Source of the DNA: Clostridia bacterium
GTDB taxonomy: Bacteria; Bacillota; Clostridia; Oscillospirales; Acutalibacteraceae
Assembly (NCBI GenBank): GCA_017473435.1
Contig: JAFULG010000002.1
Location: forward strand, 42,664-106,663
Direction of reading: 5' to 3'
Length of the DNA: 64,000 nucleotides
Shown here: positions 23,782 to 64,000 of the stretch, piece after piece
How the letters are laid out: the number at the start of each line of letters is the position of its first letter
How positions within the stretch are numbered: position 1 is the first letter of the stretch
Position numbers and translations under genes: made by a program
Notes under the pieces: generated by a model
Database searches by the model: none
Seen by the model: the letters and a program-made list of their open reading frames with translations, nothing else
Told to the model about the DNA's origin: nothing

Positions 23782-23782
23782 T

Positions 23783-27558: not shown

Positions 27559-27590
27559 ATAGCCCCTCAGTTAGATCTTACGGTCTGACA

Positions 27591-27618: not shown

Positions 27619-27749
27619 ACCTCTCCTGAAAGAGAAGGGGGACCACGAAAGCGGTGGAGGGGTCAATGTCAATTTAACCAAAGGCAAATTAACATTTTCG
27701 TCACAAGACACAATTTTTTAATAATTATAAAAGTTTTTAAAGATTGATA

Positions 27750-27779
27750 TTGACTTTATTGATTTTAGAATGATATACT
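27750..27779 (+). promoter_or_regulatory. SigA-type promoter candidate for the 2,406-aa protein gene
   Basis: TTGACT (27750-27755), an 18-nt spacer, then TATACT (27774-27779) with an upstream TG at 27771-27772. This implies a leader of about 195 nt. Confidence 0.5.
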
Positions 27780-27980
27780 GATACTAACTAAAAGTGACTC
27801 AATATGCCTTGTTGCGCCCATTTTGCATTTTACACGGTCAGGTCAGGGACCGGCAAAAGGGTTTATAGGGCAGAAAAAGGGCACATAAGTTTCGTTCAGA
27901 CGGTTAATATTTTAAAGGTCGCAGCTGCGACCTCAAAGCCGTTTTATATAACGACAATTTTTGTTAAGGAGGAAATCTTA

Positions 27981-35201: not shown

Positions 35202-35220
35202 AATACAAAGTTAATCCTGA

Positions 35221-35256
35221 ACAGAGACTCCCGTTAAAGGAGTCTCTGTTTTTTCT
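35221..35256 (+). terminator. Rho-independent terminator
   Basis: Stem acagagactcc (35221-35231) pairs with ggagtctctgt (35239-35249) around a 7-nt loop, followed by tttttt. Confidence 0.8.
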
Positions 35257-35427
35257 TTGCAGAACATATTGTGTCTGTAGAAATTTGAAACACTATATAT
35301 GATTATTATATTTTTCTGTGCAAATATAATGAGAAAAAAGAAATAAAAACGCAGCAAGGAAAACTTAACAAATAAAAAAAGCTATATATATGCAAAATGT
35401 AGAATTAAAAAAAAATTAAAAAATATA

Positions 35428-35456
35428 TTGAAAATACTGACTTTAAATGATATACT
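35428..35456 (+). promoter_or_regulatory. SigA-type promoter candidate for the giant ORF
   Basis: TTGAAA (35428-35433), a 17-nt spacer, then TATACT (35451-35456) with an upstream TG at 35448-35449. An A-tract-rich UP-like region lies upstream. This implies a leader of about 127 nt. Confidence 0.55.
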
Positions 35457-35590
35457 TACGATAGTTATAGGTGTCTCTATGGGCGTTTTGCACCCTTTTT
35501 TAGGGAAAATCACTAAAAATCGTGCTTTTTTCCATAGAAAATCCTATTTTCAGCAATATATACAATCTTTCATTTAAGGAGGAAAATTTT

Positions 35591-38500
35591 ATGAAAGTTG
35601 GTAAAAAAGCGTTAAGTCTGCTTCTGGCCGTGATTATGCTCATGTCCAGCGTATCAGTGTCTTTCAGCGTTTTTGCTGCTGAAGGTGACATTGATTATGC
35701 ATACAGCATTCTCTCAACGTACTTTAAAGAACTCATGGTTGCTATTGACAGAAGCGAGGGAGCAATAGCAAAGGCAGGAGGAGCGGATAAGGCAGATTAT
35801 TCCGATCCTGCTTTTGATAGTGTGCCCGTCAAGGATGGCAGCAAATGGGTTATTAGACGAGACACTATAAACGGAGGTTGGGTTGCTGTTTCTCGAGCTG
35901 TGTCATACTATGCTGAAAACACAGTTGCAAGAAACAAAACTTACAACATGCTTGTTGACGATATGCTTGATGAATTACAAGCAGTGTCAGCAACGTTCCC
36001 TGACGGTCAGACTATCCAGGATTATGAAAAAATCCTTGGTTACTATCGTTTTGGTGACACCTCAGAAGGAGAGACATTCGGTACACAGGCATCGGTAACT
36101 CTTCAGATTGGTCATGGATTTGATCTTCTTGCATGGGATAGTGTTGCTGATATTAAAGCTGACCAGACATATTCTACAGCTGTACTTAAGTTCACCCCCA
36201 AAGGTGAGCTTGCTACCGGTTACAGCCTTAAGTCTGCTGAGGATATAAGCTTTACCTCAACAGATTATATTGAGGTTGAAGATAACTATGCAACTGATCT
36301 TAAGACAATTAAGGGTGTTCTTGAATGGTGTGTAGGTAACACTAAGGTTCAGCCTGAGGACTGGACTCTTGATAGCGGAACCTTCAAAACCTGGTTTGCT
36401 GCAGACACTCTTACTGTAGATCAGCTTGGTCAGATTACAAAGCTTCTTGCTTTATTTGATATGACAATGGGAATCGCAGGTCTCGGTTATACACCGGCTG
36501 AAATCTGGGATCACTATGTTGCGCCTGAAACAGGTATCAACAAAACATATACAGAAACCAAAGCCTGGTATGAAACCTCAGGTGCTCGTGCAGAGGCATA
36601 CTCAAGAGCAATAGCTTATAAAGCAGAGCTTGACACTCTTATGGCTACCCCTCTTGAAGGAAAGAAAGCAGCAGAACTTAATGCTGTCAAAGAAGCGATA
36701 GAGGCTGTTATTCAGGAAATGAATTATGATCAGTTCTCTTCACTCATATACGAAATTATCAATGAGCTTGCAGAAGATTATATCGGTGAAGCAACAAGCA
36801 CAGTAGATACTTATACTAAGAATCTTGGCATTAAAGTAGGCCAAGCTTACGCTGTTGAGGAATTGTCCGATAATATACTTACTAGCGGTGTATTGGGTAG
36901 TACATTTATTATTGCTGATAAGCTTGCCGAGCTTGCTGCTGCAGCTGACACACTGCAGACTATTGATGATCTTACAAAGGGTAAGACAGATGATGAGCTT
37001 AAGGATTTTGTATGGGAAGAAACACAGGCATATAAGGATAATGTTAACTGGCTTAGTGCTGCTACAGTTCTCTTGACTTTAATTGATAGCTATGTTATTT
37101 CCAATGCCGGTTTTGATGATCTTAAGGAAACAACTACCGCTTCCGGTAATGCTGTTACAAAAGAGAATTATGACAAGGTTAACGGTAAGCTGTCTGTAGT
37201 TGCTCTTGACATCTACGGTTCAAATTATTATGAACAGAAGTCTAAGATGGACACCATTATCAGCAAGACAATTCTTGCCGGTAAGGGTTATAATGCTATT
37301 TTTGAGCTTTCAAAGGAATTTGAAACATATTATACCGCAGCTCTTGATTTGAGCAAAGACACAACGATGGAAGATGTTTACAATACCGTATATCCCAACG
37401 GTATTGATCAGTATGCCGATTTTATACATGAGATGAAGGCTGCTGTTGCCGAAAGATTCTACAATCAGATGCTGACCATCGAAAACTACTTTAAGGATGG
37501 CGGTAAGGTTACATATTATAACTTTGAATCTATTATTGCAAGAGCTGAAGGTACATGGTTTGAAACCGGTTCCAAAAAAGATAACAGCGGCAATATGGTA
37601 ATATACTCAATTATAGGTAACTACCTTCTCGGCGGTGAAGAATACGGCATTGACTATGTAGCTGAAACCGGCGATTATACAATAAAGCAGCTTGAGGATA
37701 TGTATAATAAGGTCTTTGGTGTCGGCGGTTATTATACAAAGGCTTTGCAGTTCAAAGATGGTCTTCAGGCTCTTAAGAATCTTGCTTATGATACGAGCAA
37801 GGTTCGTGAAACTGAGCGCGATAAGAAAATTCTTGCTTACATTCTTAAAGCTGAACGTGTAAAGGAATCTCAGTATGGTTGGGAATCTTGCCTCGGCAGT
37901 GAATTCTCTGTTGACGAAATCAAGAAGTATGTAAGTGAGATTGAGCTTGCTCTCGATGCAGACGGTCTTGTTGAATATGATGGAGAAATCATCACAACAG
38001 GAAGTATTGAAAAGCTTATGACTGCAGCAGTTGAGGATCTTGACAGAATTCTTCTTTCAGATGACCTTGGTACACTTCTTAACGACCTTACTGCTAAGCA
38101 GAACGAAGAAACCGGTGAAACCACGGGCTTCCTTGGCGTGTGGAGCCGTGACTATACATTTAAGAATCCGGGTGGCGGAACAACATCGGTAAAGGCCGGT
38201 GACGAATGTAAGAACCTTCGTGAATTCCTTATCAACCTTATCGTTGATCTTCTTTGGGGCGGTTCACTTCAGACAACTCTCTTCACAGCACTTAACGGTG
38301 CTGTTGGTCCTGCTTGTTACAATATGGCAGCGCAATCAGCAACTGACCTTAAAGTAGCAAAGAGAGACCTTTGGTACTTCCTTCCCCAGATTCTTCATAT
38401 GGGTCTTCCCACAATGCCCCATGACTATGTTCAGAACTGGACGAACCCCGTAACCGGTGATACTAATAAAGAGATCAGTAAAATTTCTGATTGGACAATT

Positions 38501-41500
38501 GACTGGTATAAGTTCTTTACAGGTGCTGCCTACGGTGCCTCCGGAAATTCAGAATATGACTATACCATGATTCTTCATGTTCTTGATAAGGCTCCTATTG
38601 ATACAAAGGTAGGTACCGGCGTTCTTTCAAGATCGTATTGGGCACCCTTTACTTACGGCGGAATTTCAACAGATGAAAGGGGCAACTATAAGCCCGGTGA
38701 TGTAATTGTTGCAGGTCCAAATGCAGGTAACGCTCTTGATCCCGGATATTTCAAAGGCGAGCTTCCCCTTTATTATCAAAACGCTTCAGGCGCAAAGAGT
38801 GATGAAGCACTGACAGGATATGAACCTGTTTATTTCGACAGTGCTGCTTGTTGGCATATTAATGACTGGGATGATTTCTACCGTACATTCGCAACTGCAA
38901 CCTGCGGACTTCATGTTCCTCTTGCAGAACTTGTTACCAAGAAGTCAGCTGCATCAAGTATTTACGGTGAAACTGATATTCTCGGTCTTGACGTTACGGT
39001 TCCTCTTAAGAATACCGGTGACGCTCTTTATGACAGACTTTTCATTCCTCTTTACAGATTGCTTGGTATCAGCGATTACTACAATGTAAACTCCAATCCC
39101 GGCGGCTACCATGGCAGACAGGACATTCTTTATGCCAGCGGTACCTATTCATATGAAAACGGCTTCGTTGATGTATCATCAATTACGGATTCCGGTTTTA
39201 CACTTTGGAAATATGTACTCGAGCCTATTATTTATTGGCTTGAGAACGTTCTCTTTGTTTCTCCTGTAAAGACAATAGCTGAGCTTCTTCCCAATCTGCT
39301 TGCTATGCTTGAGTATGATCAGCTTATGCCTAAGCTCAAGAATATTCAGGCTGACATTGATGCTGTTGTTAAGCCTATTGGTATTACTCTCCGATTTGAC
39401 GTTCTTATTCTCAACCTTTCAGATATCGTTGTTCCTCTTCTTGAAGGACTCGGTCTTACAAGTGATGCTCTTTCGGGCGGTATCAACGGTCTTCTTACGG
39501 CTCTGATGGGCGGTACACGAACTACATATTACAACAAAGATGAAAAACTGCCTAACAGCGATAAAAATGTAACCTGGTTGATGGAAGTTTCAACCGAATT
39601 GCAGGAAGTAAAAGATGCAAACGGTAAGGTTGTTCTCGGCGATGACGGTAAGCCTCTTATGCAGGAGGTTAAAGTAACCAGCGAGGAAAATCCTGCTAAA
39701 TGGGTATCGGGAGATACGACTTATTATATTAAGAATCCCGGCTTGCTTACTTCGGTAATGTACGGCTTGTTCCTTAATAAGGATGACGTTACAAAGAACT
39801 CCTTCCTTGACTGGCTCTGGAGCACAACCTCAGGTGAGAAATCTCAGGTACCTCTTAACATTCCTGTAAACCGCTTCATGTCAGCAGGTACGCTTTATAA
39901 TCCCAAGCTTCCTGTTAATCAACAGAGTAACGTTACTCTTATTGAAGGTGTTTACGGCACAGTTAAGAACTATCATATCTATGCAGAACCCGGTATGTCT
40001 GTTCTTACTCTTTTGCGTTGGCTCCTTAATGAAGGTACCATTGATGTAATTATGCCTCTTCTTAACGGTCTTATCAAACCTACTGTTAATGAAGAAACCG
40101 GCGAAACACAGCCAAGCATACTTGATACAATTTTACCCTTGCTTGACGGTCAGGCAGATAACATTATGGCTATTGTTATTTGCTTACTTAATGACTATGT
40201 AATCGAGTACACAACATATGAAGATCCCGCTCAGAATCCCAAAGATTGGAAAAACTGGAATGCAGACGGTACTGCAGGCGAATCTTATATTAATGATGAC
40301 GGCTCCTCTAAGTTTGCTGTTGGTACAATACTTGAAAAATATCTTTCTGAAGGAAATGCCAACATAACTGATGAAGAGCGAACAAGCGGTAATTACACAG
40401 AAGCCGAACTTATTGCAAAGGCTGACCTTGCAGTCGCCAATGCTGATAAGCTTATCAACTCACTTGCCACAACGCTGTTTGTTGCACTTGAAGGAACCCT
40501 TATGGGTATTGATGCAGTTCGCGACCTTGGTTTTGGCCCTGTTATCGAAAGAATGAAAGCTTCAATCAACAGTGATAACCCTGCTGATAAGGTTACACTT
40601 GAAGATGTTGTTGCTGATACAGTTATCGGTAATAATCTGGTTGATATGCTTATGAATCTTCTCTTCGGTAACGGTCTTCCCACAAAGGCTAAGGATGCTG
40701 CCGGAACAGCTATCCAGGCTCACGAAGGTGCTGACTCAATGAAGATGAACTACACCTACGGTGACGGCACAACAAAGGAACTTACCTTCTATATCACAGA
40801 GGGTGATAAGGATAAAGATGTTCTTCTTGACGCAAACGGCGATCCTGAAATCGTACGTCAGGTTAAGTACAAACCCGTTCTTGATGAAAATGGCAAGGAG
40901 ACAGGCCAGTTCACAGACGATATCATCGGTTTTGTAGTTAATGAAGGTCTTCTCGGTGGTCTTTTCGCTGATCCTACAAGCATTCTTAATAAGGTTCTTG
41001 AGGCTCTTGGTGAATTTAATCTTGATCTTAGTCCTGCAGGTTTCTATAAGGCTTATACTGATACTACAATAAGCGGCTACAATAAAGAGCTTGCAGCTTG
41101 GATGAAGAAACAGGCTGAAGCCTTTGCCGGCACAGCTCTTGCTGACAGTAATGTAGAGGCAACACTTAAGACTATGACCTGGGGTGACCTTCGTGCACCG
41201 AAGGGTACAAAGTGGTTTGATGAAAACACTACAGATATGGATCTCAAGTTTGACCGTTTCGGTGAACTCATCTGCGACGTGCTTACTCCCATTAACCCCG
41301 TACTTGCATTCCTTCTTTCAGGTCAGGATATCGTTCTCTTTGACGAGCTTAAGCTTCAGGGTGAAAATGGCTATTCAAGAGGTATTGTTGTAATTCTTGA
41401 AGCTCTTGGTCTTGATGCAGCTTGTATGAGTCAGAACAGATTCGATAACTTTGTATACAAGGCACCTGCAAATACAGGTGAAACAGGCTCAAAGCTTCAT

Positions 41501-56500: not shown

Positions 56501-59500
56501 ACAACCTACACCGTAAACGGCACAACATATGACCTTGAAAAGGTAACAAAGGACAACAAGCATGTAACTAAGTTTATTATCGAAGAAGCATGGGGCATCG
56601 CCGATAAGGACGACTTCCTCAAGATTGTCTACGAAATCACCGCAGTTGTTGAGCCTCTCCTTGCATTCCTCTTCAAGGGTGAAAACATCAATCTCTTTGT
56701 TGATACTCTCAGCCTCAAGGGTAACAACGGCTTCGAAAATGCTATCGTTCCTCTTGCAAAGGCACTCAATATCAAGCTTGCACATGAAGATGCAGATGAT
56801 TATGCAGATGCTAACGAAATGCTCAAGGCAGTTGTAAACGGTATCTTCGATCTCGTTAAGGATATCGAAAAGTCACCCATCTCAACAATTCTTGAACTCC
56901 TCGGCAGTGCATCCTACTTCATCGCAAACGACGGTGTTGCACTTGTTATCAACAACCTCATCAGCCCTGTTCTCGGTCTGCTTTCAATCTTCGAAAAGAA
57001 GACAAGCAAAATCGTAGACGGTGAAACTGTGGTTAAGAGCGAAGGTATCACAATGACTGATATCAACAAGCTTCTTAAGAGCCTCATCAAGATGGATCTT
57101 AACGACATCACAGGTATTGCAGGCGCTGACGGAAGCAAGCTCGTATCAATGATTAACGGTCTTCTTCCCAAGGTTTACCTTGAAGGCGAGGACGGTTCAA
57201 TCAGACTTGCAGAGCCTCTTCCCGCTAAGTTCTTTGAAAACATGAGCAAGTATGCTATCAACTACGACAGCCTTGATAAGGATGAAAAGGTTGATGCAAA
57301 CATCAGAAAACTTGCTGTAGAGAGATGGTCAGTTGATAAGGCAGACGTGCTTATGTATCTCCTTTCAACAGTTTGCTCCGACGAATTCCTCGCATTCCTT
57401 GGTGACCTTATTAAGGCAGAGGAAGGCACAATCCTCGGTGATCTTATCTTCGGTCTCTCCGGTGACGAAGATCTTGTAATCAACATCATCTCAATGCTTC
57501 TTAACAACTATAAGCTTGTATACAAGAAGTATGCACAGATTGATATTACAAAGATTGATGTTGTTCCCACAGAACCCTTCACTGACGAAAATCTTGCACA
57601 GGCAATCCAGGCAATCGACGGTCTTGTTCCTGCAATTATCGGCTTGTTCGTTAAGGATGCAGACTCACTCAAGGCGCTCGTTGAAAACCTTGTTGCCGAC
57701 GCAGATCTCGGTAACCTTCTCATGAATCTCCTTGTTCCTCTCCTTTCAGGTCTTGATATTGACGAAATCCTTGGCTATGTTAAGGAATTCAGCAACCTCA
57801 ATGTTAAGCTTGATCCTTCAGCATGGACAGCAAACGCTAACAGCGAAATTGCTAAGTTCATCCTTAAGGCTGATGCAGATGAAGACGGCAAGGTAACATG
57901 GAAGGAAGTAGAGGCATACTATACTCAGTATGAATTCACTTACACAATTCCCGCTACAACAGATACAGCAGCAAAGAACGTAACAGTTTATAAGCCCGCA
58001 GGCACAACAGAAATCGTTGTAGGCGAAGGCACAAATGCTGTTAAGTACAAACTTGCTCCTGTTTACGAGTACGAATACAAATACACCGTAACAACAGGTG
58101 AAGGCGAAGCTGCAAAGAAAGAAGAAAAGACTATCGTTCTTGCAGAAGCAGATCTTACCACAACAAAGATTGACAATAAGGATGTTGAAATTACCTTCAA
58201 CAGAAATATCCAGAAGTCAAAGATGGTAAGCGAATACAACTGGAATATCAAGACCTTCAATGATCTTAAGACATTTGCAGTTGACCTTCTCAAGCCTCTT
58301 GACGTAGTATTTGAGCTTCTCCTTGCAGGTGCAAACATCATCGTTGCTCCTGACAATACAACTGACGTTGAAGACGATAAGGCTCAGATCACCGTACGAG
58401 GTAGTGACGGCTACAACTTTGCAATCATTCCTCTCCTCGAGGCTATCGGTGCAAAGGATCTCAAGTCTCAGGCTGAATATGAGGCATTCTCAAAGAGGCC
58501 TGAAGTCGGTTCACACCTTGCATATATCCTTGATGTACTCTTTGCAGAGGTTGAGACAATTCTCAATGCTCCTGTATCAGAACTTATGTCAAGACTTGCA
58601 AACCTCTTCTACTTCATCGGCAACAACTCAATCAACGTTCTTGCAGATAACCTTCTTGCTCCTGTAAATACTCTTATTGCAGAAGTAGATCCCATCTTCC
58701 CGCTTGCAATCAACATTGATGTAAGCAAGGTTGGTGTAGAGGGTGCAAAGGTTCTTGAGCTCTTCCTCGGTAAGGCTCACGACGGCGTTGAAGCAGGTAT
58801 CCATGTAAATGTAGAAGCAAGTGCACTTGCAAATCTTCTCAACAACCTCCTTGCAGGTATAGAGATTAACGGTGCTAAGCTTGGTCTCAGCCTCGACCTT
58901 AACTGGATCGAAATCGCAAGAAAGATGGCTAAGACAAAGCTTCCCGACTCACAGAACACTACCGGTGCAGAAGTATCCAAGCTTGAATCAAGCATGGATT
59001 ACGAAGCTTACGAAAACGTTATCGGTACAACCGGATACACAGACGGCAAGTACTATAACATCGAAGGTAACGTAGTTGACACCTTTGTAACTCTCCTTCA
59101 GGTAATTCTCACTGAAGATAATACAGAAGCTATCAGTAACCTTGTAACAGGTCTCCTTAAGGATGCACCTCAGGAGGTTAAGGATATCCTCGACGGCATT
59201 CTTTCAGATCCCGATGCTATCGAAGAGCTTATCGGTGCAGTTGTTCTTCTCCTCACCGGCGAAGGCGCAATGAAGGATTATCCCTTAAGCTTCGTATTCA
59301 AGTACCTTGGCGAGCTTAACTACAACTACAGCACAATTAATGGCGGCGAAGCTGCAGTTAACAGTGCAATCAGTAAGTTTGATGCTATGATCGCCCGTGA
59401 GGCAGTCGGCGTAATCAAGATGTTCGGTGACACAACTGAAACAGATCAGACCAAGTGGACATTCTTTAACAAGATGTCAATGGCTCTTGAAGCTGACGAT

Positions 59501-62500
59501 ACTCTTGCTGACCTCGTAGCATGGCTCCTTGAAGAATTTGCCTTCACAGCAGCTAACTTTGATACAGTAATGGCTCTTCTCAACAATATCCTTGCTGACA
59601 ACATTACTGCAGATCTCTCAGGTATTATCTCAACAATTCTTCCCATCAACCTTATGCCTTACGAATTCGCAAAGGCTACAGGTAATACAGCTCTTCATGC
59701 ATACGTTGCAAAGGCATATGCAGCAGACGCAACAGAAGACGCTAAGAAGGCAGTAACATGGGCAGATGTACGTGACGCAAATGCAACAAGCAAGAAGAAC
59801 GGCGATAAGACAGAATGGACTTATGCAACAAGCTGGAACATTTCCGGTAAGGATGCATTCATCGGTGCATTCATCGACCTTCTCAAGCCTCTCAACCCGA
59901 TTCTTGACTTCCTGTTCGCAGGCAAGAACCTTAAGTTCAAAATCGACGGTGTTGAACTCTGGGGTGCAGACGGTTATGCTAATGCAATCGTTCCTCTTCT
60001 TAACGCTCTCGGTGCAAAGCAGCTTGGCGTAAATCTTCCTGCAGATGCAGCTAACACAACAGCCGCTCTCGGTTACATTGTTGATGCTCTCCTCGGTAAG
60101 GACGAAGCAATTACAGGCGGTCTTGATGACGAAGCTCAGATCACTCATATCAAGGGCGTTGTAGATGTAATCTGCGAAGCACCTCTTACCTCAATTCTCA
60201 CAATCGTAGGTAACCTCAGCTACTTCATTGCTAACGGTAACCTTGACGAGCTTATCCAAAACCTTGTAGCTCCTGTAATGGGTATCCTTGATCTCATCAA
60301 GCCTATCCTTCCCATCGGCGAGCTTGACAAGATTATCGAAGGTCTCGCAAAGATTACTCTTCCCGGCGGTAAGGCTCTCAATGTTACTAACATTATCAAC
60401 ATCGCAGGTGAAAAGGGTGAAGGTCTTGTAGCTCTTATCAATGAGCTCATCGGCACTCTCAAGGCATATGAAAAGACTCGTCTTGAGCTTGACGCAGACC
60501 ACAACATCGTTAAGTACACCTTTGCTGAAAAGGAAGCAGACAAGGATAACAAGTACATCGAGCTTACCGATGAAGAAGGTAACCTCACTAACGAATATGC
60601 AAAGGTACTTGAATCCAGTCAGATTGTTGAATACACTAAGGCACAGACTGAATTGTATCCTGATGCTGAATTTGTAGAACGCGATAAGACAGACGCTGAC
60701 GGTAAGGTTGTTACCGTAAAGGATGAAAATGGTAAAGATGTTCCTGTAAAGGTTTACTGGAGAGTAATTCAGTACATCAGCATTCTTCCTGAAGACTTCT
60801 TCGAGGATCTTTCAAGATACGTAGTTGAAAACAGCAAGTATGAGGATTCCTTCCGCGGTGAAGGCGACGAGGGCGACCCCGTTGACGAATGGACTATCAA
60901 TGCTGCTGAAGCACTTATGTATGTCCTTTCAACAGTTCTTGATTATGACTTCTTCTCAACTATCCTTAAGAAGATTGGTCTTAATCTCGGTGACGGTATC
61001 GGTCAAATCGTTGTATCAATGGCTGATAAGGAAAATGAGCTTATCGATGTAATCGTAATGCTCCTTAATAACTACGATGTTGTATACTCAAAGATTGAGC
61101 AGGCTCAGCTTCCCACTGATACTACCAAGACGGCAGCTCCCTATGCTTCCTTCGGTAAGAATGAGCAGAATGAGAACCTTCTCAATAATGAGAATACATC
61201 TAATGCAGTTGCAGCACTTGATCCTATTATCAACACTGTAGTTGCAATGCTTGCCGGCGGCAAGTCACTCGGCGGTCTTGTTGACGGACTTATAGCAGAT
61301 CTTGACGTTGCAAACCTTATCATGAACGCTCTTGTTCCCGTACTCGCAACTCTTGAAATTGATGAGATTCTTGCATACGTGAATGAGCTTACAAACATTC
61401 AGCTTACAACTCTTAATCCTTCACTCTGGACAGATAATGCAAATGTTAAGTTCGGTTCAGAACTTAAGAACTTCCTTAACGCTGTTCCCAAGAAGACAGA
61501 CGAGACAGGTAAGGAGCTTGCTCTTACATGGAAGGATGTAGCAGAATTCTACACCAAGTATGAATACACCTACACAATTCCTGCTAAGCAAGCAGTAGGC
61601 AAAGAGGGCGACAAGGACTTTGTAGCCGCAACAGAGGCTAAGACAGTAACAGTCTTCCTTGATGAAGGTGAAACAACAATTACGGTTGGTACCGAAAGCT
61701 ATGAGCTTACACCTGTATACACTTATGAGTACTATTATAATGATGCTGATAATAAGATTCAGAAGTACACTTCAACCACGGCAGGTCTTACAAAAGCCGA
61801 TGTAGACAACAATAAGGCTACAGCAGACGTTGAAGTAACCTACACCGGAAACAGCACACGCAACAAGAAGATGTACAGCGAGTTCAACTGGAATATCACC
61901 GGTCTTGACTCAACACTCATCAACTTTGTATGTGACCTTCTCCAGCCTCTTGATATCGTATTCCAGATTCTTCTCAGAGGCGAAAATATCAAGGCTCTTG
62001 AAGATACTTCAGCAGATCGTGCTGACATCAGAATCATGGGTGGCTTAGGCTACAATTACGCTATTATCCCGCTTCTTGAAGCATTCGGTGCAACAGGTCT
62101 TAAGACTCAGACTGAATATGATACTTATTCAAAAGAACAGGGCTCATCACTCAAGTATGTGCTTGAAGCACTTATCGGCGAAGTAGATAAGATTCTTGCT
62201 TCACCTCTCAATGAGCTTCTTTCAAGACTTGCAAACCTCTTCTACTTCATTGGTAGCGACGGAATCAACACAGTTGCTAATAACCTCCTTGCTCCTCTCA
62301 ATACTCTTATTGAAGAAGTTGACGACCTTGTTCCTCTTGCAATCAATATTGACATCAGTAAGATTGCAGCAGGTGAAGGCATAGGTCTCTACCTTCTTAA
62401 GGAACATGAAGGCGTTCCCGCAGGTATCACTGTAAATGTTGCAGGCGCTGACCTTGCAGAGCTCATCAACGGTCTTATTGGCGACCTTAAGATCGGCGAC

Positions 62501-64000
62501 GTAACTCTTAAGCTCAAGCTTGATCTTGACTGGACAGCAATCGCAGCTAAGATGGCTAAGAAGGATAAGCAGGGCTACATTCTCACAACAGCCTCAAAGC
62601 AGGATTACACTAAGGGTACAATCAGCAATCCTGATACACCTGATCTTGTAAATATCACAGGCGATGCAGCAAATGCAATCGTAACGCTCCTTGACACAGT
62701 TCTTACAAGAGAAAACTGTAAGAATATCTATAACCTTGTTGAAGGTATACTTCCTGATAACTTCGATGCAACTCTCAAGAACCTCATTCTTGAAATTGTA
62801 GGTAGCGACGCATCCATCAAGGGTATTGTTGCAGCAGTTGTACTTATCCTTACAGGTCAGTACGATGTTGAATCACTTCCCTACATCTTCAAATATCTTG
62901 GTATTCTTGAGTTTGCTAAGGCAGGAAATGCAGCAACAGCAGTAGACAGCCTTGATAAGGCTCTCGTTAAGGCTGTTCCTGTAATTATCGAAATGCTTGC
63001 AAAGGATAAGACAGATCCTTCTGACTTCCTCTACAAGCTTTACAACGGAACAGGCAAGAACGCAACACTTGTGAACATCGTTAATTACCTGCTTGGTGAT
63101 TTACTGTTCACTGACAGCATGATGAGCACCATCACCGGTGCACTCCTTGGTGTACTTAAGAACCTTGGTTCAGATATCACAGGCATTCTTAAGGACTTCC
63201 TCGGCGTTGATCTTGCTCCCGTAGCCTTCGCAGAAGCAACAGAAAATGCAGAGCTTAAGGCATACGTTGCCAAGGCATATGCAGCTGACGCAACGGAAGA
63301 AGCAAAGGCAGCCGTAACATGGGCAGCTGTAGTAGCAGCAAATACCGATGCAAACGGTAAGATTGCTCCTGTATTCACCGGCATTGATGCTGAGGGTAAG
63401 GACGAAATCAAGACAACAGATGAAAAGAAGGATGCATTTGTAAATGCAATTCTCGATCTCCTCAAGCCTCTTGAAAACGTGCTTGCATTCATCCTTACCG
63501 GTAAGGACCTTGAAGTTACTGTTAAGAACGGCAACGAAAAAGCAACACTTACCCTTAAGGGCGGCGATGCTTACAACACAGCAATCGTTCCTCTCCTCTT
63601 CCAGGGTCTCGGCCTTGAAGAGCTTATCACCGGTACTAACAAGTCAACAGTCAGCGGTGCTAAGGATGCTGCAACAGCAAACGAAGCTATCAAGAATACT
63701 CTTGATTACATCCTTGTTGACCTTGTAAATGCAATTGAAAAGGCTCCTCTTTCAACAATCATCACTGTTGTTGCAAACCTCGGCTACTTCATTGCAAATA
63801 ACGATGTTGCAGTTGTAATCCAGAACCTTGTTGCTCCTGTATTCGGCATCATTGATGCTCTCGGTGGTGTAATTAGCAGATCAGAGCTCGATCAGCTTAT
63901 TGGCGAACTTGTAAATGTTACACTTCCCAACGGTAAGAAGCTTAACATCACTAACATTGTTAACATTGCCGGCGATAATGGCGCTATCCTTATTGACCTC
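35591..64000 (+). CDS. Giant secreted protein of unknown family, at least 9,470 aa; 3' end outside the window
   Basis: AAGGAGG (35576-35582) lies 8 nt before ATG 35591. I translated this frame (positions equal to 2 mod 3) by eye to nt 64000 and met no stop. The signal peptide is MKVGKKALSLLLAVIMLMSSVSVSFSVFA|AEGD. All track ORFs in this span lie in other frames and are 296 aa or shorter. It is not in the track because no stop occurs before the window edge. Confidence 0.93.
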   Translation, partial: MKVGKKALSLLLAVIMLMSSVSVSFSVFAAEGDIDYAYSILSTYFKELMVAIDRSEGAIAKAGGADKADYSDPAFDSVPVKDGSKWVIRRDTINGGWVAVSRAVSYYAENTVARNKTYNMLVDDMLDELQAVSATFPDGQTIQDYEKILGYYRFGDTSEGETFGTQASVTLQIGHGFDLLAWDSVADIKADQTYSTAVLKFTPKGELATGYSLKSAEDISFTSTDYIEVEDNYATDLKTIKGVLEWCVGNTKVQPEDWTLDSGTFKTWFAADTLTVDQLGQITKLLALFDMTMGIAGLGYTPAEIWDHYVAPETGINKTYTETKAWYETSGARAEAYSRAIAYKAELDTLMATPLEGKKAAELNAVKEAIEAVIQEMNYDQFSSLIYEIINELAEDYIGEATSTVDTYTKNLGIKVGQAYAVEELSDNILTSGVLGSTFIIADKLAELAAAADTLQTIDDLTKGKTDDELKDFVWEETQAYKDNVNWLSAATVLLTLIDSYVISNAGFDDLKETTTASGNAVTKENYDKVNGKLSVVALDIYGSNYYEQKSKMDTIISKTILAGKGYNAIFELSKEFETYYTAALDLSKDTTMEDVYNTVYPNGIDQYADFIHEMKAAVAERFYNQMLTIENYFKDGGKVTYYNFESIIARAEGTWFETGSKKDNSGNMVIYSIIGNYLLGGEEYGIDYVAETGDYTIKQLEDMYNKVFGVGGYYTKALQFKDGLQALKNLAYDTSKVRETERDKKILAYILKAERVKESQYGWESCLGSEFSVDEIKKYVSEIELALDADGLVEYDGEIITTGSIEKLMTAAVEDLDRILLSDDLGTLLNDLTAKQNEETGETTGFLGVWSRDYTFKNPGGGTTSVKAGDECKNLREFLINLIVDLLWGGSLQTTLFTALNGAVGPACYNMAAQSATDLKVAKRDLWYFLPQILHMGLPTMPHDYVQNWTNPVTGDTNKEISKISDWTIDWYKFFTGAAYGASGNSEYDYTMILHVLDKAPIDTKVGTGVLSRSYWAPFTYGGISTDERGNYKPGDVIVAGPNAGNALDPGYFKGELPLYYQNASGAKSDEALTGYEPVYFDSAACWHINDWDDFYRTFATATCGLHVPLAELVTKKSAASSIYGETDILGLDVTVPLKNTGDALYDRLFIPLYRLLGISDYYNVNSNPGGYHGRQDILYASGTYSYENGFVDVSSITDSGFTLWKYVLEPIIYWLENVLFVSPVKTIAELLPNLLAMLEYDQLMPKLKNIQADIDAVVKPIGITLRFDVLILNLSDIVVPLLEGLGLTSDALSGGINGLLTALMGGTRTTYYNKDEKLPNSDKNVTWLMEVSTELQEVKDANGKVVLGDDGKPLMQEVKVTSEENPAKWVSGDTTYYIKNPGLLTSVMYGLFLNKDDVTKNSFLDWLWSTTSGEKSQVPLNIPVNRFMSAGTLYNPKLPVNQQSNVTLIEGVYGTVKNYHIYAEPGMSVLTLLRWLLNEGTIDVIMPLLNGLIKPTVNEETGETQPSILDTILPLLDGQADNIMAIVICLLNDYVIEYTTYEDPAQNPKDWKNWNADGTAGESYINDDGSSKFAVGTILEKYLSEGNANITDEERTSGNYTEAELIAKADLAVANADKLINSLATTLFVALEGTLMGIDAVRDLGFGPVIERMKASINSDNPADKVTLEDVVADTVIGNNLVDMLMNLLFGNGLPTKAKDAAGTAIQAHEGADSMKMNYTYGDGTTKELTFYITEGDKDKDVLLDANGDPEIVRQVKYKPVLDENGKETGQFTDDIIGFVVNEGLLGGLFADPTSILNKVLEALGEFNLDLSPAGFYKAYTDTTISGYNKELAAWMKKQAEAFAGTALADSNVEATLKTMTWGDLRAPKGTKWFDENTTDMDLKFDRFGELICDVLTPINPVLAFLLSGQDIVLFDELKLQGENGYSRGIVVILEALGLDAACMSQNRFDNFVYKAPANTGETGSKLHQYMNSNNSAYDNDVSVDDLSKEKITLNGKVVERRFAKTINSPLKPLIVAIKELLLGIEENGTVVEPGLLDSPLTVLFSKLPNIAYNLYLFETVETDLFGEETVKNTYNFSIAVKNLIAPVTKVLDVVDPVLSRLLKLDINELLDSILDIEALVNNLVGSLVGGADSKGTSMKIFDFAKLAADSSVINRNATTNRYNFTKFTKFEGSPGKLFITLIRTLLTSEIVGAIGGLIANAFGVNDETQNVTDEQKEASERIKNIVKMIQTNLCKPDTKNELEGGMYVDYLTSIILDIFTDYLPSDGEFYFYEIINRVDTELIKLEDQIKAMNAYGVKHQGYDWANKPKDDEGNLLFTEAEVNTTIENLDYVIKNAVPEVLATLQANGILGDGLDANLAGDAGLWGLVKGLLGDFILKDDFLTTLANLICGLLGASGDTGTTGVIQQVLKSAGFDITFNAFLYKADGKTKSELYSYFTYGFYKENGSLKPGASGGYDMYYLDTDGDGLIDDLNNNGTHGDEGDEVEITWAQVYKNHSYDVYETNEDGELVIVNGEPQFKTVKVQKTREVQDEKDGAPVVDENNKPVMKTQYAYYYFNETFTEVWLESDKRTKYTVNGIEYDLVKVYSGEDEDKTHKSRVNEETGNTEYAYTYVKKDKEEIWLDKSGESTVTVGPSSYSLSIVETDKLENVLDENGKVVLDDNGEPVTRKVYEKALLTTAYPQLKQDGKYVYSYKDAEGVEQTYLSNYQQETKLDSGESKDGKKIFFDLSPVYSETLTDRAWVWGIDDPVLVKPDGTLRDEFTAKKVAVVNTLWSVLEPFANIFSALFAGDALTLFDGTLNIEGGWGYINYIRPLMNAFGLDAILEQLSAEEKEAIQTKDANGQVIEHLMTEEEYKAMVYNADGTLNPEGLGTSVKNVINYVFYFVEVLCNYPVETLAVALPTLAYFLYADGITTLVSNILVPITTLTDRLATILNIDINAIGAGLLDMLATGSWKNFQVALETFMKIDENGNLVTSVDTGLSLTKSLFALLTTLLELDLSGILGEDDPYGGKYGIVLFINKEAELAAKAKLKEAEALKVDEINNSTEIAKLTEEAKNIRGTALSDFLKSIAALGDPVSEHSGSGHGHDPAEEYIAENYADYVYVTKDGQVPVSKAEVLMFILDFAFQNETLKKVIGNLLGYDITDENTSDAELLDEILTNVFTDYNALVDVIVALFSGYTANDILELELKTIDQENHFRFYEDYGFYDHKDVLKENEKLKAENKELITEISRVKTSATIDNLDALVGKILNLSLIKEPLTRADDLTTPENEQGIFNMFGLNGDDTITLQALVDSIFETYLYDDKGLNSIMDMLIGLLGGESASQIINIVLDILKGASKDVDGKPTMNLNPDAFKNNVPELAGTIDKATDLNGDGNISWDEVAKANSQYQYVVKNEKDEVLETLYSEKTPAELDKNDEGALVLDGKVVSADMIQEQDYVIKTEQDNNEKDIQVKYYRYTYSVSVGDSLQNVPVELKESGITEWVEVADDPETDENEEVKHLVKAVMRDTDKQKTAVKISATWNINTRDEFVDTLWRCIKPLAPVFAMLFAEGELRVFDKIALSGSKGYLGFVLPLINALGIPALKKTDGSSYLTADKYISDYDAYKTAVYGKDARLTFDEHGYLNDTDGKVMLTTITDALFALVDSLCARPVNTLLTIIPYLAHAIDSDGIDVILENLLVPVTTITGMIEDIYSINILGIIKDLLRGLIKDLNDKAGVPSDSTDYEDQGSTAAAAAALLLEKVEEAEENTQTGGEAAIAALAEPDPALDLSGAGGANYKFLDLIKELVKGLSINGTSLSSIIDVDNIFTNLSSIAWMPTEMKGNLESTGEVQKVIMNASGRGGSIDRYDATEYTVDRESVLIKVLNDIVFTDGIRDLIGGLLKFDFSNKAMTTLTETDKDYLLTVLLYGVFEDPEALERLLIDLLSWYDVEYQDARVSSASNVTEFDSFNEGRDELVYGEQGNGLDKEQMEKLPEDFDSLIGKIVPAVIGMLPEGTLGDLTLTGANLEEMVHNLLVGLMADKEITNEDGTKTMKYGFATQLVELLVGALGGNATVSMIVGLLPTIIDGVDVELKDFKKVNAAFNSYFKKTDGTELNTWAEAYEYFKTIKKYVAPENPAAGYVPPAYEADTLNLYAVDDAGKPIPEFKLDEKGAKIPVYKNAPYEEAFGARYYTDAGSAQTENEQPLENTYVVATKDGKVVYTYQYELKLTNTNSFGIKDYDDILELVSQILAPFAPVLRFLLTEADLVALDGVHVTGGDGYDRFIIPLFEVLGVDSYMNDSDSSYEGSYKFINKKAFAALDNEAFTKQVVAYIDALISMVLNTPIQTIVDLIPELVFFIYSDGLAQAVEQLVAPLLTLVDMVNDITAKEVVIEGRDDKLVALDIVGLITNLINDSLMKPNGLPVVDGFYGENGLITRLLTAEGLETLLQGLLDKANTYIYAYTYEVPAAEEGKEAEVKTVYLDSENQSTYIPDETKPDEAFNLTRAADKDKKVINLGLDKDGVGGADEKPIEGIFRWILKKTCKIEKVATLREFDAVNGKVWGVKANRADTLVQIISETLLGGDMLTSLLASFGVEIKEGEILDTILKAVTGENKYVIFVVLLKYFNEYEVETMLMEYLSFEKQEYEYEAIDGSRFTKRKLRRAIKKLDGSLLTVVPELIPMLEDVDLIRTLLDKIGGYKQGQSLNDLVHELLNAYVFNDKTVNELMGLLIGLLGGENLAGTLGTVLPLVKDIVGIDVTPAGFAAESSSQAVKAFLGAAIDAAAAEEVVDKDGKPVVDEDGKAVLKGKENVTWQDVAEFYTVYVYSYNDVTAETKFAYTYTDKDGKIVNYYSAEEDDDLKIIVDEEEVKLEAKGTKTFYSYTTNYMYSNDATLHGTPVEGKDGKTWFGYEQATDADGNLLWDETKGGEAAGVPLAKTEKKTVDVIDEKTGEPKKNADGTTVTKEIDVPVRATKVVAPEGDEAFNWHFDRFDTYQGKKNAFIEILAGIVTPLEGVLNFLLRGDSLRILPEGDDGAVLELYGNKGYENVIMPLFQALGVDQIGGTIVSAKDYEDGRGTDMTLYAITEGIFSIIEAITLNPLEYIFTLLPSLSYFISCNGPETVLNNLLSPVLALLNLAYPIVGDLLDDLIGASISDIFGDFMPDTINYTVKVNKKSPVYKTTTEVVDGVETEVKIKATTTSEKVTYEDKTYYITAGDGKGEVIADAYVVEYDEAAQAPVFNTYKAYALTDLLKICGEYGENLVNIINNLVGPLLLGKDATEEELAAFKLLDDTFFADYAAQALTVNKQKDEAKFYYFVETADGSWIKVRDLLYKSEMGTIKETHYVVDWFKVDIADSAVFLLDNVLSETLLREIAKLAKIDLTDEDNILAAIIKNLINNDNPGLIITSIITALFENYTIKYNELYGEFFTPDHSHLDNLKTEEDKTKAAAVPGQLDKIIKNALPAVAPILSKLLAPKDGKKPTILNDIVDKFDTIANTTDEVADLYEVAQYLLDELVLSDELVNTLAALIVNLIGGTDIIGTIIEYFGLTGIKLDPQSYLATVEKAYTVDDMKTAVAAFKSIIGEATTWADVVRNDTTPLYAYEYATGENDDKGNPKKATVYLADANATTYELTKTVGEGEAAKEVKDEVALTQVLTEDGKRVVKAEYNNVVDGKKVAELNWGVNNAKDKKDAFIKALSVIIEPLFPVLQLVLQGKILTLVGHNKKSYTPVNMVEYNSDGTHITIEDDSRTGEEIGNGYIELMGVNGYEELLVPLLDALGGLEAFKAYDEDNNPDGIMTADEFNGLANAYDMLDYIVNVVFAFVNNLVASPVTYLANYLPSLLYFIGSDGVYNAVQSVLQLVNGLIAVVEPLIGPNGIKLSDTLGLPLDLLMLKLDDSTVPGKVQKTNVDGKYAYIAKNDETKTEIYLDKSGLTKNGDVEIEAVMEDGFITVKGLCSMINDLIKKPDFINKTLLLKLAGYLGDFEVISTVRRTAGSLLYDTETEAYYRVVEVNGKNTTILVAQKEGKLWVDDLGNTVNKPVDKDGKITTIVGDTQYTLTGLLQFALADGLVSGFVDTSKMEGILKTILDNVMGPNATENVAAILIKLLNKYVITYEAIEEPAGIDTEGKSFAEYLDALVAAENTKAEAEDDYTAKTAKEIYAELEENNELKLDQIAEALTYFNNAVEYGKYGVEKAEVQLALNNIQALIPEILALLNVGSLESLIADNLYTDNIANLLVGLLVGLLGGLDDKTWNTITEILGYVKDIVGLNIDISPAAYAVKDNVFKPFIDAVNVERDVKNDAGEVTGKERIPVEDLTWSDVANFYTKYEYKYEVEAAKAAEGVEGEEGYKAAVPAKFETVWLADANATKYTPAEGDHAGTEYELIKGETTEYEYSYTIPATEEGKEDEVKKFFSTDDKLTETKVGETTYPVTKTGETNVTHNSKVESDFDWGIGSADGLNAKADKLVKVVTDLLKPLDCVLSLLLAGGTYNFAETKAYGDSLGAFEEINIMGGSGYNYAIIPLLEALSVPAESIKTQAEYEDTIATKGTLGYILETVLHTVNDNLDKPLDFVLGLFANLAYTISKDGATTFVSNLIAPLSEVIEAIEGVLPVAIKINLMALMDGGSIAEILLGNDVALKKAKVGLTLDLDCATLEELIAKVLAKFVSGFDITIDFAEIAAKSAKRDEMGGIEYNNSKVDPVWDICLGTPGKNIQGDTAATIITLLATVITSENIDALLKMLKVDLSTLPVAVTELIDKAIDSPDVLIGAVIKLLASNYDITSIIKEMSFYFLGEAEYDYKNIEGGHNAVNKAIGKFDRMINNLIPKLLKLLGNELEKPVEFIKNIYVALGEDAEDADIADVVDYLLNDFVFNDDMMNTLLGLIVGLLGGIEAKTFNTIADLVNKILGIDLTPAGVAEKSYGEIGAVASLIEAVAEEAGKTVKEITWAEIAAAYTKYEYRYMTKAAEGAPDTEGYKAAEYATVYLDGAEETTYTVNGTTYDLEKVTKDNKHVTKFIIEEAWGIADKDDFLKIVYEITAVVEPLLAFLFKGENINLFVDTLSLKGNNGFENAIVPLAKALNIKLAHEDADDYADANEMLKAVVNGIFDLVKDIEKSPISTILELLGSASYFIANDGVALVINNLISPVLGLLSIFEKKTSKIVDGETVVKSEGITMTDINKLLKSLIKMDLNDITGIAGADGSKLVSMINGLLPKVYLEGEDGSIRLAEPLPAKFFENMSKYAINYDSLDKDEKVDANIRKLAVERWSVDKADVLMYLLSTVCSDEFLAFLGDLIKAEEGTILGDLIFGLSGDEDLVINIISMLLNNYKLVYKKYAQIDITKIDVVPTEPFTDENLAQAIQAIDGLVPAIIGLFVKDADSLKALVENLVADADLGNLLMNLLVPLLSGLDIDEILGYVKEFSNLNVKLDPSAWTANANSEIAKFILKADADEDGKVTWKEVEAYYTQYEFTYTIPATTDTAAKNVTVYKPAGTTEIVVGEGTNAVKYKLAPVYEYEYKYTVTTGEGEAAKKEEKTIVLAEADLTTTKIDNKDVEITFNRNIQKSKMVSEYNWNIKTFNDLKTFAVDLLKPLDVVFELLLAGANIIVAPDNTTDVEDDKAQITVRGSDGYNFAIIPLLEAIGAKDLKSQAEYEAFSKRPEVGSHLAYILDVLFAEVETILNAPVSELMSRLANLFYFIGNNSINVLADNLLAPVNTLIAEVDPIFPLAINIDVSKVGVEGAKVLELFLGKAHDGVEAGIHVNVEASALANLLNNLLAGIEINGAKLGLSLDLNWIEIARKMAKTKLPDSQNTTGAEVSKLESSMDYEAYENVIGTTGYTDGKYYNIEGNVVDTFVTLLQVILTEDNTEAISNLVTGLLKDAPQEVKDILDGILSDPDAIEELIGAVVLLLTGEGAMKDYPLSFVFKYLGELNYNYSTINGGEAAVNSAISKFDAMIAREAVGVIKMFGDTTETDQTKWTFFNKMSMALEADDTLADLVAWLLEEFAFTAANFDTVMALLNNILADNITADLSGIISTILPINLMPYEFAKATGNTALHAYVAKAYAADATEDAKKAVTWADVRDANATSKKNGDKTEWTYATSWNISGKDAFIGAFIDLLKPLNPILDFLFAGKNLKFKIDGVELWGADGYANAIVPLLNALGAKQLGVNLPADAANTTAALGYIVDALLGKDEAITGGLDDEAQITHIKGVVDVICEAPLTSILTIVGNLSYFIANGNLDELIQNLVAPVMGILDLIKPILPIGELDKIIEGLAKITLPGGKALNVTNIINIAGEKGEGLVALINELIGTLKAYEKTRLELDADHNIVKYTFAEKEADKDNKYIELTDEEGNLTNEYAKVLESSQIVEYTKAQTELYPDAEFVERDKTDADGKVVTVKDENGKDVPVKVYWRVIQYISILPEDFFEDLSRYVVENSKYEDSFRGEGDEGDPVDEWTINAAEALMYVLSTVLDYDFFSTILKKIGLNLGDGIGQIVVSMADKENELIDVIVMLLNNYDVVYSKIEQAQLPTDTTKTAAPYASFGKNEQNENLLNNENTSNAVAALDPIINTVVAMLAGGKSLGGLVDGLIADLDVANLIMNALVPVLATLEIDEILAYVNELTNIQLTTLNPSLWTDNANVKFGSELKNFLNAVPKKTDETGKELALTWKDVAEFYTKYEYTYTIPAKQAVGKEGDKDFVAATEAKTVTVFLDEGETTITVGTESYELTPVYTYEYYYNDADNKIQKYTSTTAGLTKADVDNNKATADVEVTYTGNSTRNKKMYSEFNWNITGLDSTLINFVCDLLQPLDIVFQILLRGENIKALEDTSADRADIRIMGGLGYNYAIIPLLEAFGATGLKTQTEYDTYSKEQGSSLKYVLEALIGEVDKILASPLNELLSRLANLFYFIGSDGINTVANNLLAPLNTLIEEVDDLVPLAINIDISKIAAGEGIGLYLLKEHEGVPAGITVNVAGADLAELINGLIGDLKIGDVTLKLKLDLDWTAIAAKMAKKDKQGYILTTASKQDYTKGTISNPDTPDLVNITGDAANAIVTLLDTVLTRENCKNIYNLVEGILPDNFDATLKNLILEIVGSDASIKGIVAAVVLILTGQYDVESLPYIFKYLGILEFAKAGNAATAVDSLDKALVKAVPVIIEMLAKDKTDPSDFLYKLYNGTGKNATLVNIVNYLLGDLLFTDSMMSTITGALLGVLKNLGSDITGILKDFLGVDLAPVAFAEATENAELKAYVAKAYAADATEEAKAAVTWAAVVAANTDANGKIAPVFTGIDAEGKDEIKTTDEKKDAFVNAILDLLKPLENVLAFILTGKDLEVTVKNGNEKATLTLKGGDAYNTAIVPLLFQGLGLEELITGTNKSTVSGAKDAATANEAIKNTLDYILVDLVNAIEKAPLSTIITVVANLGYFIANNDVAVVIQNLVAPVFGIIDALGGVISRSELDQLIGELVNVTLPNGKKLNITNIVNIAGDNGAILIDL
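41360..63613 (+). repeat. Protein-level tandem array of at least 12 divergent modules inside the giant ORF
   Basis: The anchor motif G-x-x-G-[YF]-x-x-x-[IL]-[IV]-P-L-x-x-A-[LF]-G starts at 41360, 44006, 46286, 48365, 50654, 52820, 55067, 56720, 58400, 59963, 62039 and 63560. Spacing is 1,521-2,646 nt, always in frame. Confidence 0.85.

Follow-up and report, generated by a model that had tools for sequence, protein, structure and literature searches.

A 10,697-codon gene near the replication origin of a Clostridia bacterium is built of tandem modules of a candidate new family

What kind of protein is specified by a reading frame that runs for thousands of codons to the very edge of a sequenced stretch without meeting a stop? 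The question is raised by a 64,000-nucleotide stretch of contig JAFULG010000002.1 from a Clostridia bacterium (assembly GCA_017473435.1, positions 42,664 to 106,663; hereafter the window), in which an open reading frame (ORF) begins with the ATG at 35591 on the plus strand and is still open at the last base. The best explanation, to which we assign a probability of roughly 0.55, is that this is a real gene of 10,697 codons whose product is exported by the Sec pathway, held at the cell by its C terminus, and serves as a long, nonenzymatic surface fiber that resembles Ebh of Staphylococcus but is unrelated to it. The gene itself is an observation; the fiber function is something that we infer.

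Translation of the frame of ATG 35591 bore out the central claim of an earlier, sequence-only reading of this DNA, that the frame contains no stop between 35591 and 64000. There are 9,470 sense codons and zero stops in that interval, the prior stop in the frame lying at 35501. The base composition of the window gives a stop frequency of 0.063 per codon, or about one stop per 16 random codons, and the chance of 9,470 stop-free codons is approximately 1e-268. The remaining five frames of the same interval contain 179 to 1,221 stops each. Competing ORFs are as small as had been stated (under 170 amino acids [aa] on the plus strand and 296 aa in antisense): the longest measured 168 aa on the plus strand (47835 to 48341, start equal to 0 mod 3) and 296 aa antisense to the giant ORF (55895 to 56785). 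The proposal of a native gene, made from codon choice, was likewise sustained. Relative synonymous codon usage of the giant ORF correlated with that of dnaA, dnaN, gyrB, gyrA, mnmG, and serS from the same window at r = 0.94, compared with r = -0.14 for the same DNA shifted by one base. The window contains no N and showed no sign of assembly collapse. No DNA repeat within the ORF exceeds 211 nt in length or 85% in identity; repeats this diverged would not cause a collapse, and mis-joining is implausible as well. The start had also been described correctly, with the ribosome-binding site AAGGAGG, an 8-nt spacer, and, by inspection, a type I Sec signal peptide consisting of MKVGKK, the hydrophobic core ALSLLLAVIMLMSSVSVSFSV, and the site FA-AEG, cleaved between A29 and A30.

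The full length of the gene can be read from a nearly identical locus on ENA contig ERZ28654267 (XIEF21-1_SAMN15829983_METAG-scaffold_157; 136,542 bp), which was located through an exact match to the SerS protein of the window and showed 2 mismatches to the window in 21,269 bases. The giant gene is called there with a product of 10,697 aa and a start that corresponds to window position 35591, so the stop is expected near window-equivalent 67,682 to 67,684, approximately 3.7 kb past the window edge. The window thus covers the first 9,470 of 10,697 codons, and the last 1,227 residues fall outside it. The estimated mass of the complete protein is about 1.17 MDa, and the visible part has an isoelectric point (pI) of 4.4. 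When one genome per GTDB species was scanned, colinear orthologues were found in two other metagenome-assembled genomes (MAGs), Oscillospiraceae bacterium SIG577 (L005) and Clostridia bacterium RGIG4510 from roe deer rectum (L006), the orthologous frame being open for more than 5,000 codons in both; a scan of JGI metagenomes gave no match. The first 4,029 residues available for L006 align end to end with window residues 5246 to 9470 at 60.5% identity, and the first 3,855 available for L005 align with window residues 5506 to 9470 at 66% identity. The ratio of nonsynonymous to synonymous substitution rates (dN/dS; Nei-Gojobori) was 0.21 over 3,929 aligned codons for L006 and 0.24 over 3,730 for L005, which indicated purifying selection. 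Both ORFs extend 1,194 to 1,199 residues beyond the match to the window end, in agreement with the 10,697-aa call. The giant ORF is a single conserved native gene under purifying selection. Judged by its nearest relatives, the host is an uncultured Clostridia/Oscillospiraceae bacterium. The roe deer orthologue suggests an origin in the ruminant gut, and we take the sample prefix XIEF21 to be that of a published ruminant gut MAG study. To rank the product among the largest bacterial proteins, however, was an overstatement: 10,697 aa is very large, but bacterial proteins predicted to exceed 30,000 aa and to reach 85,804 aa have been reported, along with gut Clostridia proteins of 10,000 to 30,000 aa (West-Roberts et al., 10.1101/2023.11.21.568195).

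The view of the protein as featureless fails. Tile-against-tile BLAST, iterated hidden Markov model and profile searches, and a module similarity matrix resolved, from aa 1066 onward, 13 visible diverged tandem modules of 510 to 760 aa each (Table 1). They are joined by linkers of 3 to 39 residues, save for a 237-aa stretch outside the module profile that precedes module M3. Identity between modules is 20 to 45%, and the modules arose by internal duplication. Two subtypes can be told apart, A (M8, M10, and M12) and B (M9, M11, and M13), and they alternate through the last six modules, where each A-B pair makes up a super-repeat of about 1,150 to 1,200 residues. The best-conserved part of a module is a core of approximately 250 residues, mostly helical, accompanied by variable beta-rich inserts and carrying the motifs L.PL.PVL..LL.G, G..GY..AI.PLLEALG, and P...LL..LPNL.YFI..DG...NLLAPV in that order. 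Invariant positions of the core are mostly glycine, proline, tyrosine, and hydrophobic residues, a pattern more in keeping with a structural than with a catalytic domain. Two extra cores follow the match to the window end in the orthologues, and the full protein therefore probably has 15 modules.

Nor is the protein an orphan. When 1.84 billion representatives (clusters at 50% identity) were searched exhaustively with HMMER and the module profile, 622 clusters matched at E ≤ 1e-3, 348 of them at E ≤ 1e-30. Most of the best 150 of the 622 are themselves giants of 2,000 to 7,700 residues that match the profile in 4 to 23 stretches, with a median spacing among the retrieved proteins of about 590 residues per core. 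Every family member with a source name is a "hypothetical protein [Clostridia bacterium]," and Pfam searches with 16 diverse members gave only isolated spurious matches. A signal-peptide-like N terminus was present in 112 of 161 members. The longest member found is the 10,697-aa giant; database searches otherwise returned none above 7,691 residues. As those databases did not return the 10,697-aa protein, longer members may exist. With 13 visible copies of the core, the window protein belongs to this unnamed "GxxGY-PLLEALG" group, which on the sequence comparisons appears to be a newly defined, previously undescribed module family of Clostridia. One member of 4,705 aa (P0040; L012, positions 1 to 7695) is preceded by an Lgt gene and a different giant of more than 3,268 aa with FIVAR repeats, from which it follows that several unrelated giant surface proteins can cluster in these genomes. 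A literature search on giant surface proteins of the rumen found nothing relevant.

The sequence-only reading had recognized no known domain in the protein, and database searches agreed: Pfam (E ≤ 0.01), NCBIfam, and PHROGs gave 0 matches on all 9,470 visible residues. Cohesin, dockerin, and carbohydrate-binding modules, the marks of a cellulosomal scaffoldin, were not found by Pfam, and neither were the Big/Ig-like or cadherin-like repeats or the RTX nonapeptides of the RTX or type 1-secreted adhesins (LapA, SiiE type); the N-terminal Sec signal also sets the protein apart from the latter. PDB sequence-profile searches with alignments of the module, of a family of small relatives described below, and of the N-terminal head gave nothing below E = 0.3. 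An AlphaFold2 model of module M10, built from a 12-row alignment of internal copies, had a mean predicted local distance difference test score (pLDDT) of 63.5 and a predicted template modeling score (pTM) of 0.56, with the core at about 80. From the N terminus, helices lead to a beta-rich insert and then to the helical core around GxxGYxxAIIPLLEALG, which includes short hairpins; after a disordered stretch, the model is again helical at the C terminus. A model of the small relative P0012 from a 50-row alignment reached a mean pLDDT of 73, with 80 to 88 in its two cores, and is mostly helical, with a beta-hairpin just ahead of the GxxGY motif. Foldseek searches with the two models against 350,542 PDB chains gave best E values of 1.1 and 0.029, to generic helical proteins at a TM-score of ≤0.15, and against BFVD a best E value of 0.0067, again at a TM-score of ≤0.15. 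The module would thus have no known fold among the structures of PDB and BFVD, a provisional statement, since the models are only moderate and these two databases were the scope of the Foldseek search.

The two ends of the protein differ from its repetitive middle. The unrepeated head of 1,036 residues had no Pfam match and no PDB sequence-profile match. In a database of 5.8 billion sequences, the first 1,200 residues had only five matches, at 44 to 55% identity, all of them contig-truncated proteins from Clostridia MAGs. P0021, a homologue of 5,829 aa, has the head as well as the C-terminal tail, and altogether the head is common to only six other proteins, five of them contig-truncated. As for the C terminus, the two orthologues and the wider family, which reach beyond the window, suggest that it adds two cores to those visible and closes with a conserved tail, the last element of which is a strongly amphipathic Phe/Lys helix, NWFQRLIAKIKAFFEKIFSVFK. 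The L005 and L006 tails end in NWFQRLI(A/K)KIK.FF.KIFS.FK (codons at about 15,080 to 15,148 and 15,620 to 15,685, respectively), and the terminal helix has a hydrophobic moment of 0.60 to 0.71, compared with a 99th percentile of 0.50 over all 22-residue windows of the protein. Used as a query, the last 330 residues of the L006 protein, comprising the final core and the tail, aligned along their entire length with ten other members, in each case right up to the C terminus. Of the 161 members, 15 fit a strict regular expression written for this helix (...PNG.I.FF.KII.FFK.LF), and 12 of the 15 also have a signal peptide; contig ends truncate many of the 161, which lowers the count. A Phe/Lys heptad-like amphipathic helix of this kind (e.g., GLIKFFQKIIEFFQKLITFFKSLF), preceded by PNG, also ends P0025, P0042 to P0044, P0067, P0072, P0096, P0115, P0133, P0154, and others. 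To our knowledge, it resembles no known anchoring or sorting signal (LPXTG, SLH, GW, WxL, or a transmembrane segment plus basic tail). It may anchor the protein at the membrane surface or act as an oligomerization zipper. An LPxTG-like motif was not found within about 3,400 residues of the L005 and L006 C termini, that of the window protein itself lying beyond the window. A hydrophobic segment about 100 residues from the end of the orthologue tails, VADLIVAALFEVFGIGIVL, was considered as a transmembrane anchor and withdrawn, since the corresponding residues are YY(I/V)F(Y/F)... in most members and no basic flank comes after them. The nearest parallel is with PBP5 and PBP6 of Escherichia coli, exported proteins that likewise end in a strongly amphipathic helix and have no transmembrane segment, lipid, or sortase signal. 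There is no sequence relationship to them, however, and the helix predicted here is a Phe/Lys heptad-like repeat with a putative anchoring role.

Taken as a surface fiber, the protein would work as follows. The chain would be exported by Sec, the C-terminal Phe/Lys helix would tether it at the membrane surface or drive self-association, and the acidic helical modules would form a very long rod or fiber, of tens to hundreds of nanometers, that carries the head away from the cell. Its role would be spacing, adhesion, or envelope organization. Secretion is indicated by the signal peptide, and a nonenzymatic nature is indicated by the lack of any enzyme domain in Pfam, NCBIfam, and PHROGs. The closest analogue is Ebh/Embp of Staphylococcus, a protein of about 10,000 aa with helical-bundle FIVAR-GA repeats in a unit of about 126 aa. 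The giant and Ebh/Embp share a mass of about 1.1 MDa, an N-terminal secretion signal, an unrepeated N-terminal region, a mostly alpha-helical array expected to be a rod, an acidic composition, a Gram-positive host, and, to judge from the orthologues, C-terminal membrane association. Unlike Ebh/Embp, the giant has no YSIRK motif, its unit is 510 to 760 aa and far more diverged, and its C terminus probably carries the amphipathic helix instead of a transmembrane segment and basic repeat region. FIVAR (PF07554), GA (PF01468), and DUF1542 repeats were not found in the 9,470 residues (Pfam, E ≤ 0.01), and membership in the Ebh/Embp family is excluded for this reason. The giants of West-Roberts et al. 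(10.1101/2023.11.21.568195) are similar in being derived from metagenomes, longer than 10,000 aa, from mammalian gut Clostridia, repetitive, and proposed to act in adhesion. The Clostridia proteins in that preprint, however, are composed of known domains (RCC1, Listeria-Bacteroides repeat, YG repeat, dockerin, leucine-rich repeat), none of which is present here, and its Omnitrophota giants have many transmembrane regions and SecA-like domains, which this protein lacks.

Several points weigh against a fiber of this kind. The C terminus of the protein itself is unseen in the window, and the anchoring is drawn from orthologues that are 60 to 66% identical. The terminal helix departs from the classical anchors, since neither a transmembrane segment followed by a basic tail nor LPXTG nor SLH is present. 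No adhesin-type domain is recognized in the head. The rod-like shape is assumed, and both AlphaFold models are moderate overall (pTM of 0.56 to 0.58). The neighborhoods of four other giant members had no conserved partner gene, so that genomic context gives little functional support. Finally, small relatives with two cores are encoded in ABC (ATP-binding cassette) transporter operons, a hint that the core may have a different role, one linked to transport.

These small relatives are the basis of the alternative that survives best. In about 50 complete proteins, each of about 875 residues, a signal peptide is combined with two cores and, at the C terminus, a classical transmembrane anchor with a basic tail. 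The giant's module matches this family at E values of 1e-12 to 1e-18, with 29 to 35% identity over 17 to 29% of the module, and Pfam at E ≤ 1 found no recurrent family in 50 of its members. Gene order was conserved in four of four loci (Table 1), whose two-core proteins are 36 to 47% identical to P0012: a MarR regulator, the two-core gene (about 875 to 946 aa), and a gene for a fused ABC_tran and FtsX protein of the MacB type (911 to 917 aa), which starts 3 to 15 nt past the two-core stop. In three of the four loci, a divergent marR and two ABC_membrane exporter genes lie upstream. This linkage is the sole conserved functional association found for the core domain. MacB/FtsX-type ABC proteins act via extracytoplasmic partner proteins. 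The core might, then, be the extracytoplasmic component through which a transport or mechanotransmission system acts on hydrophobic or envelope substrates, and the giant a multicopy, envelope-spanning version of it, not a passive fiber or adhesin. The diversity of the linked two-core proteins, their signal peptide and anchor, the buried-looking hydrophobic helices in which the cores are rich, and a Wzm/Wzt-like ABC-2 exporter 0.4 kb upstream of the two giant genes in the window all speak for such a role. But the window contains no FtsX-type gene, the giant members examined have no conserved ABC neighbor, the ABC-2 exporter is of another ABC class and separated from the gene by another gene and a terminator, and the resemblance to the small family covers only that limited part of the module. 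The two-core proteins share with the giant a homologous core, a signal peptide, and, as predicted for the giant, C-terminal membrane attachment, yet they have only two cores, the classical anchor, and the ABC_tran and FtsX linkage, features that the giant does not have. We regard the transport role as rather unlikely. A bolder form joins it to the filament: the core of about 250 residues would be a new fold and an extracytoplasmic partner of MacB/FtsX-type mechanotransmission ABC transporters, and the giants would be lineage-specific, megadalton, envelope-crossing filaments anchored by a new C-terminal Phe/Lys helix. As a whole, this combination is doubtful.

A second alternative takes the protein as a building block of a matrix, sheath, or S-layer-like structure, in which copies self-associate, for instance via the Phe/Lys helix, into a layer and do not stand as single tethered fibers. 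A Phe-zipper coiled coil could arise from the heptad-like repeat FFxKIIxFFKxLF at the terminus, the protein is acidic (pI 4.4), as are many surface-layer proteins, and origin-proximal leading-strand genes with a strong ribosome-binding site tend to be highly expressed. Against a layer, neither SLH (PF00395) nor CWB2 nor any other wall-binding domain was found, by Pfam, in the visible residues, nor were SLH and CWB2 found in the 16 family members searched, and a subunit of 1.17 MDa would be very costly for a lattice. We consider it unlikely.

Size is what the protein has in common with giant polymorphic toxins, contact-dependent effectors, and mega-enzymes of the nonribosomal peptide synthetase or polyketide synthase type, classes to which many giant bacterial ORFs belong. 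Searches of Pfam and NCBIfam with the 9,470 visible residues found no RHS/YD, LXG, toxin, or hemagglutinin domain and no condensation, adenylation, peptidyl carrier protein, ketosynthase, or acyltransferase domain. The C-terminal region, which would be a variable tip in a toxin, is instead conserved in the orthologues and in ten other members, and the L005 orthologue is followed by glycosyltransferase genes and not by a small immunity-like gene; such an identity is highly improbable. That the frame is a noncoding or misassembled stretch left open by accident has in its favor only its origin in a metagenome assembly, and is negligible in view of the stop-free run, the dN/dS of about 0.2, the native codon usage, the colinear open orthologues in two independent MAGs, and the short, diverged internal repeats. 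The domain searches, the conserved C terminus, and the selection signal effectively exclude the toxin, megasynthase, and artifact explanations, and the surface fiber remains the preferred one.

The gene lies close to the replication origin. The window carries dnaA (6788 to 8092), dnaN (8327 to 9430), gyrB, gyrA, LytR_cpsA_psr, mnmG, rsmG, noc/parA/parB, and serS, followed by the Wzm/Wzt-like ABC-2 exporter (25964 to 27558), a gene for a protein of 2,406 residues, a terminator, a promoter-like site, and the giant gene. A noc-like ParB-family gene (21972 to 22820) and a spo0J-like gene (23783 to 24652) flank parA. The cumulative GC-skew minimum at about 6 to 8 kb (about 6,000 to 8,300) coincides with dnaA and dnaN and marks the origin. 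All of the listed genes are on the plus strand, and together with the position of the minimum this indicates that they are co-oriented with replication. The giant gene starts 27 to 29 kb from dnaA/oriC, as the earlier estimate of about 27 kb had it. The terminator-like hairpin and promoter-like site ahead of it suggest that it has its own promoter. The 2,406-aa protein, a second very large secreted one, is encoded at 27981 to 35201 (+) as called on the public contig, the mechanical ORF start being 27804. It has the signal peptide MKNQLKKSLSFVMAVLMILSCWVWVAPEKAEAAG, 42 cysteines in repeated C..C-containing blocks, a Cys-rich C-terminal end, and Y.Y.F.GW-type motifs that recall Listeria-Bacteroides repeats, with no Pfam match at E ≤ 0.01. 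Upon comparison, it was rejected as a relative of the giant, to which it is unrelated. Three other assemblies (L002, L003, and L004) contain the same locus, with an identical SerS and 97 to 99.7% DNA identity to the window (compared over 17759 to 35445), and their contigs all end before or inside the 2,406-aa gene. The L002 and L003 alignments break at 28069/28467, where about 400 nt close to the 5' end of the gene are variable. Evidently, short-read assemblies fragment at these giant genes. Envelope-glycopolymer genes are found near the giants: in the window, LytR_cpsA_psr (16817 to 17980) and the TagG/TagH-like Wzm/Wzt exporter; in L005, three family 2 (GT2) glycosyltransferase genes (15228 to 20402) directly after the orthologue, in the place of which L006 has unrelated genes. 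These neighbors may hint that the giants are glycosylated or bind wall polymers. The setting appears to be a cell-envelope region, to which the link is loose.

Table 1. Coordinates of the giant gene, its parts, and associated features (window positions, except for the four loci in the last row)
Feature	Position	Strand	Basis
Intrinsic terminator-like hairpin, 13-bp stem and T-run, closing the upstream 2,406-aa gene	35219..35251	+	Sequence
Promoter-like site, TTGAAA-17-TATACT with TG extension	35428..35456	+	Consensus match only
Ribosome-binding site AAGGAGG, 8 nt before ATG	35576..35582	+	Sequence
Giant ORF, first 9,470 of 10,697 codons	35591..64000	+	Translation, gene call, codon usage, orthologues
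Sec (type I) signal peptide, aa 1-29, MKVGKK, hydrophobic core, and VFA-AEG	35591..35677	+	Sequence inspection
Unrepeated N-terminal head, aa 30-1065 (1,036 residues)	35678..38785	+	Database and profile searches
Module M1, aa 1066-1630, most diverged	38786..40480	+	Profile search, similarity matrix
Module M2, aa 1667-2347	40589..42631	+	Profile search, similarity matrix
Module M3, aa 2585-3258	43343..45364	+	Profile search, similarity matrix
Module M4, aa 3295-3994	45473..47572	+	Profile search, similarity matrix
Module M5, aa 4034-4665	47690..49585	+	Profile search, similarity matrix
Module M6, aa 4691-5450	49661..51940	+	Profile search, similarity matrix
Module M7, aa 5489-6196	52055..54178	+	Profile search, similarity matrix
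Module M8, aa 6201-6812, subtype A	54191..56026	+	Profile search, similarity matrix
Module M9, aa 6843-7353, subtype B	56117..57649	+	Profile search, similarity matrix
Module M10, aa 7360-7945, subtype A, AlphaFold2-modeled	57668..59425	+	Profile search, similarity matrix
Module M11, aa 7976-8556, subtype B	59516..61258	+	Profile search, similarity matrix
Module M12, aa 8560-9136, subtype A, 45% identical to M10	61268..62998	+	Profile search, similarity matrix
Module M13, aa 9164-9470 and beyond, subtype B, cut by window edge	63080..64000	+	Profile search, similarity matrix
marR, two-core, and ABC/FtsX loci	L007 7215-13394; L009 6792-13388; L014 4439-10598; L015 3714-10361		

Giant repetitive surface proteins were already known; what is new here is the undescribed module family of which this one is built. 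Length is not the only ground for its significance, which rests on the unrecognized fold, the size of the family, and the lead given by the ABC operons: a family of at least 622 clusters appears to be built entirely of a module that goes unrecognized by Pfam, NCBIfam, PHROGs, PDB sequences, and Foldseek (PDB, BFVD). The module, the C-terminal helix, and the MacB-type ABC link are starting points for structural and genetic work, and a new domain-family entry is possible. If the core were indeed an ABC/FtsX partner and the giants filaments, they would constitute a previously unrecognized cell-envelope system of monoderm gut Clostridia. Each of these proteins costs 0.2 to 1.2 MDa, and they are found in many uncultured rumen and gut Clostridia, in which the family probably shapes how the cells make contact with plant fiber, host surfaces, or other microbes.

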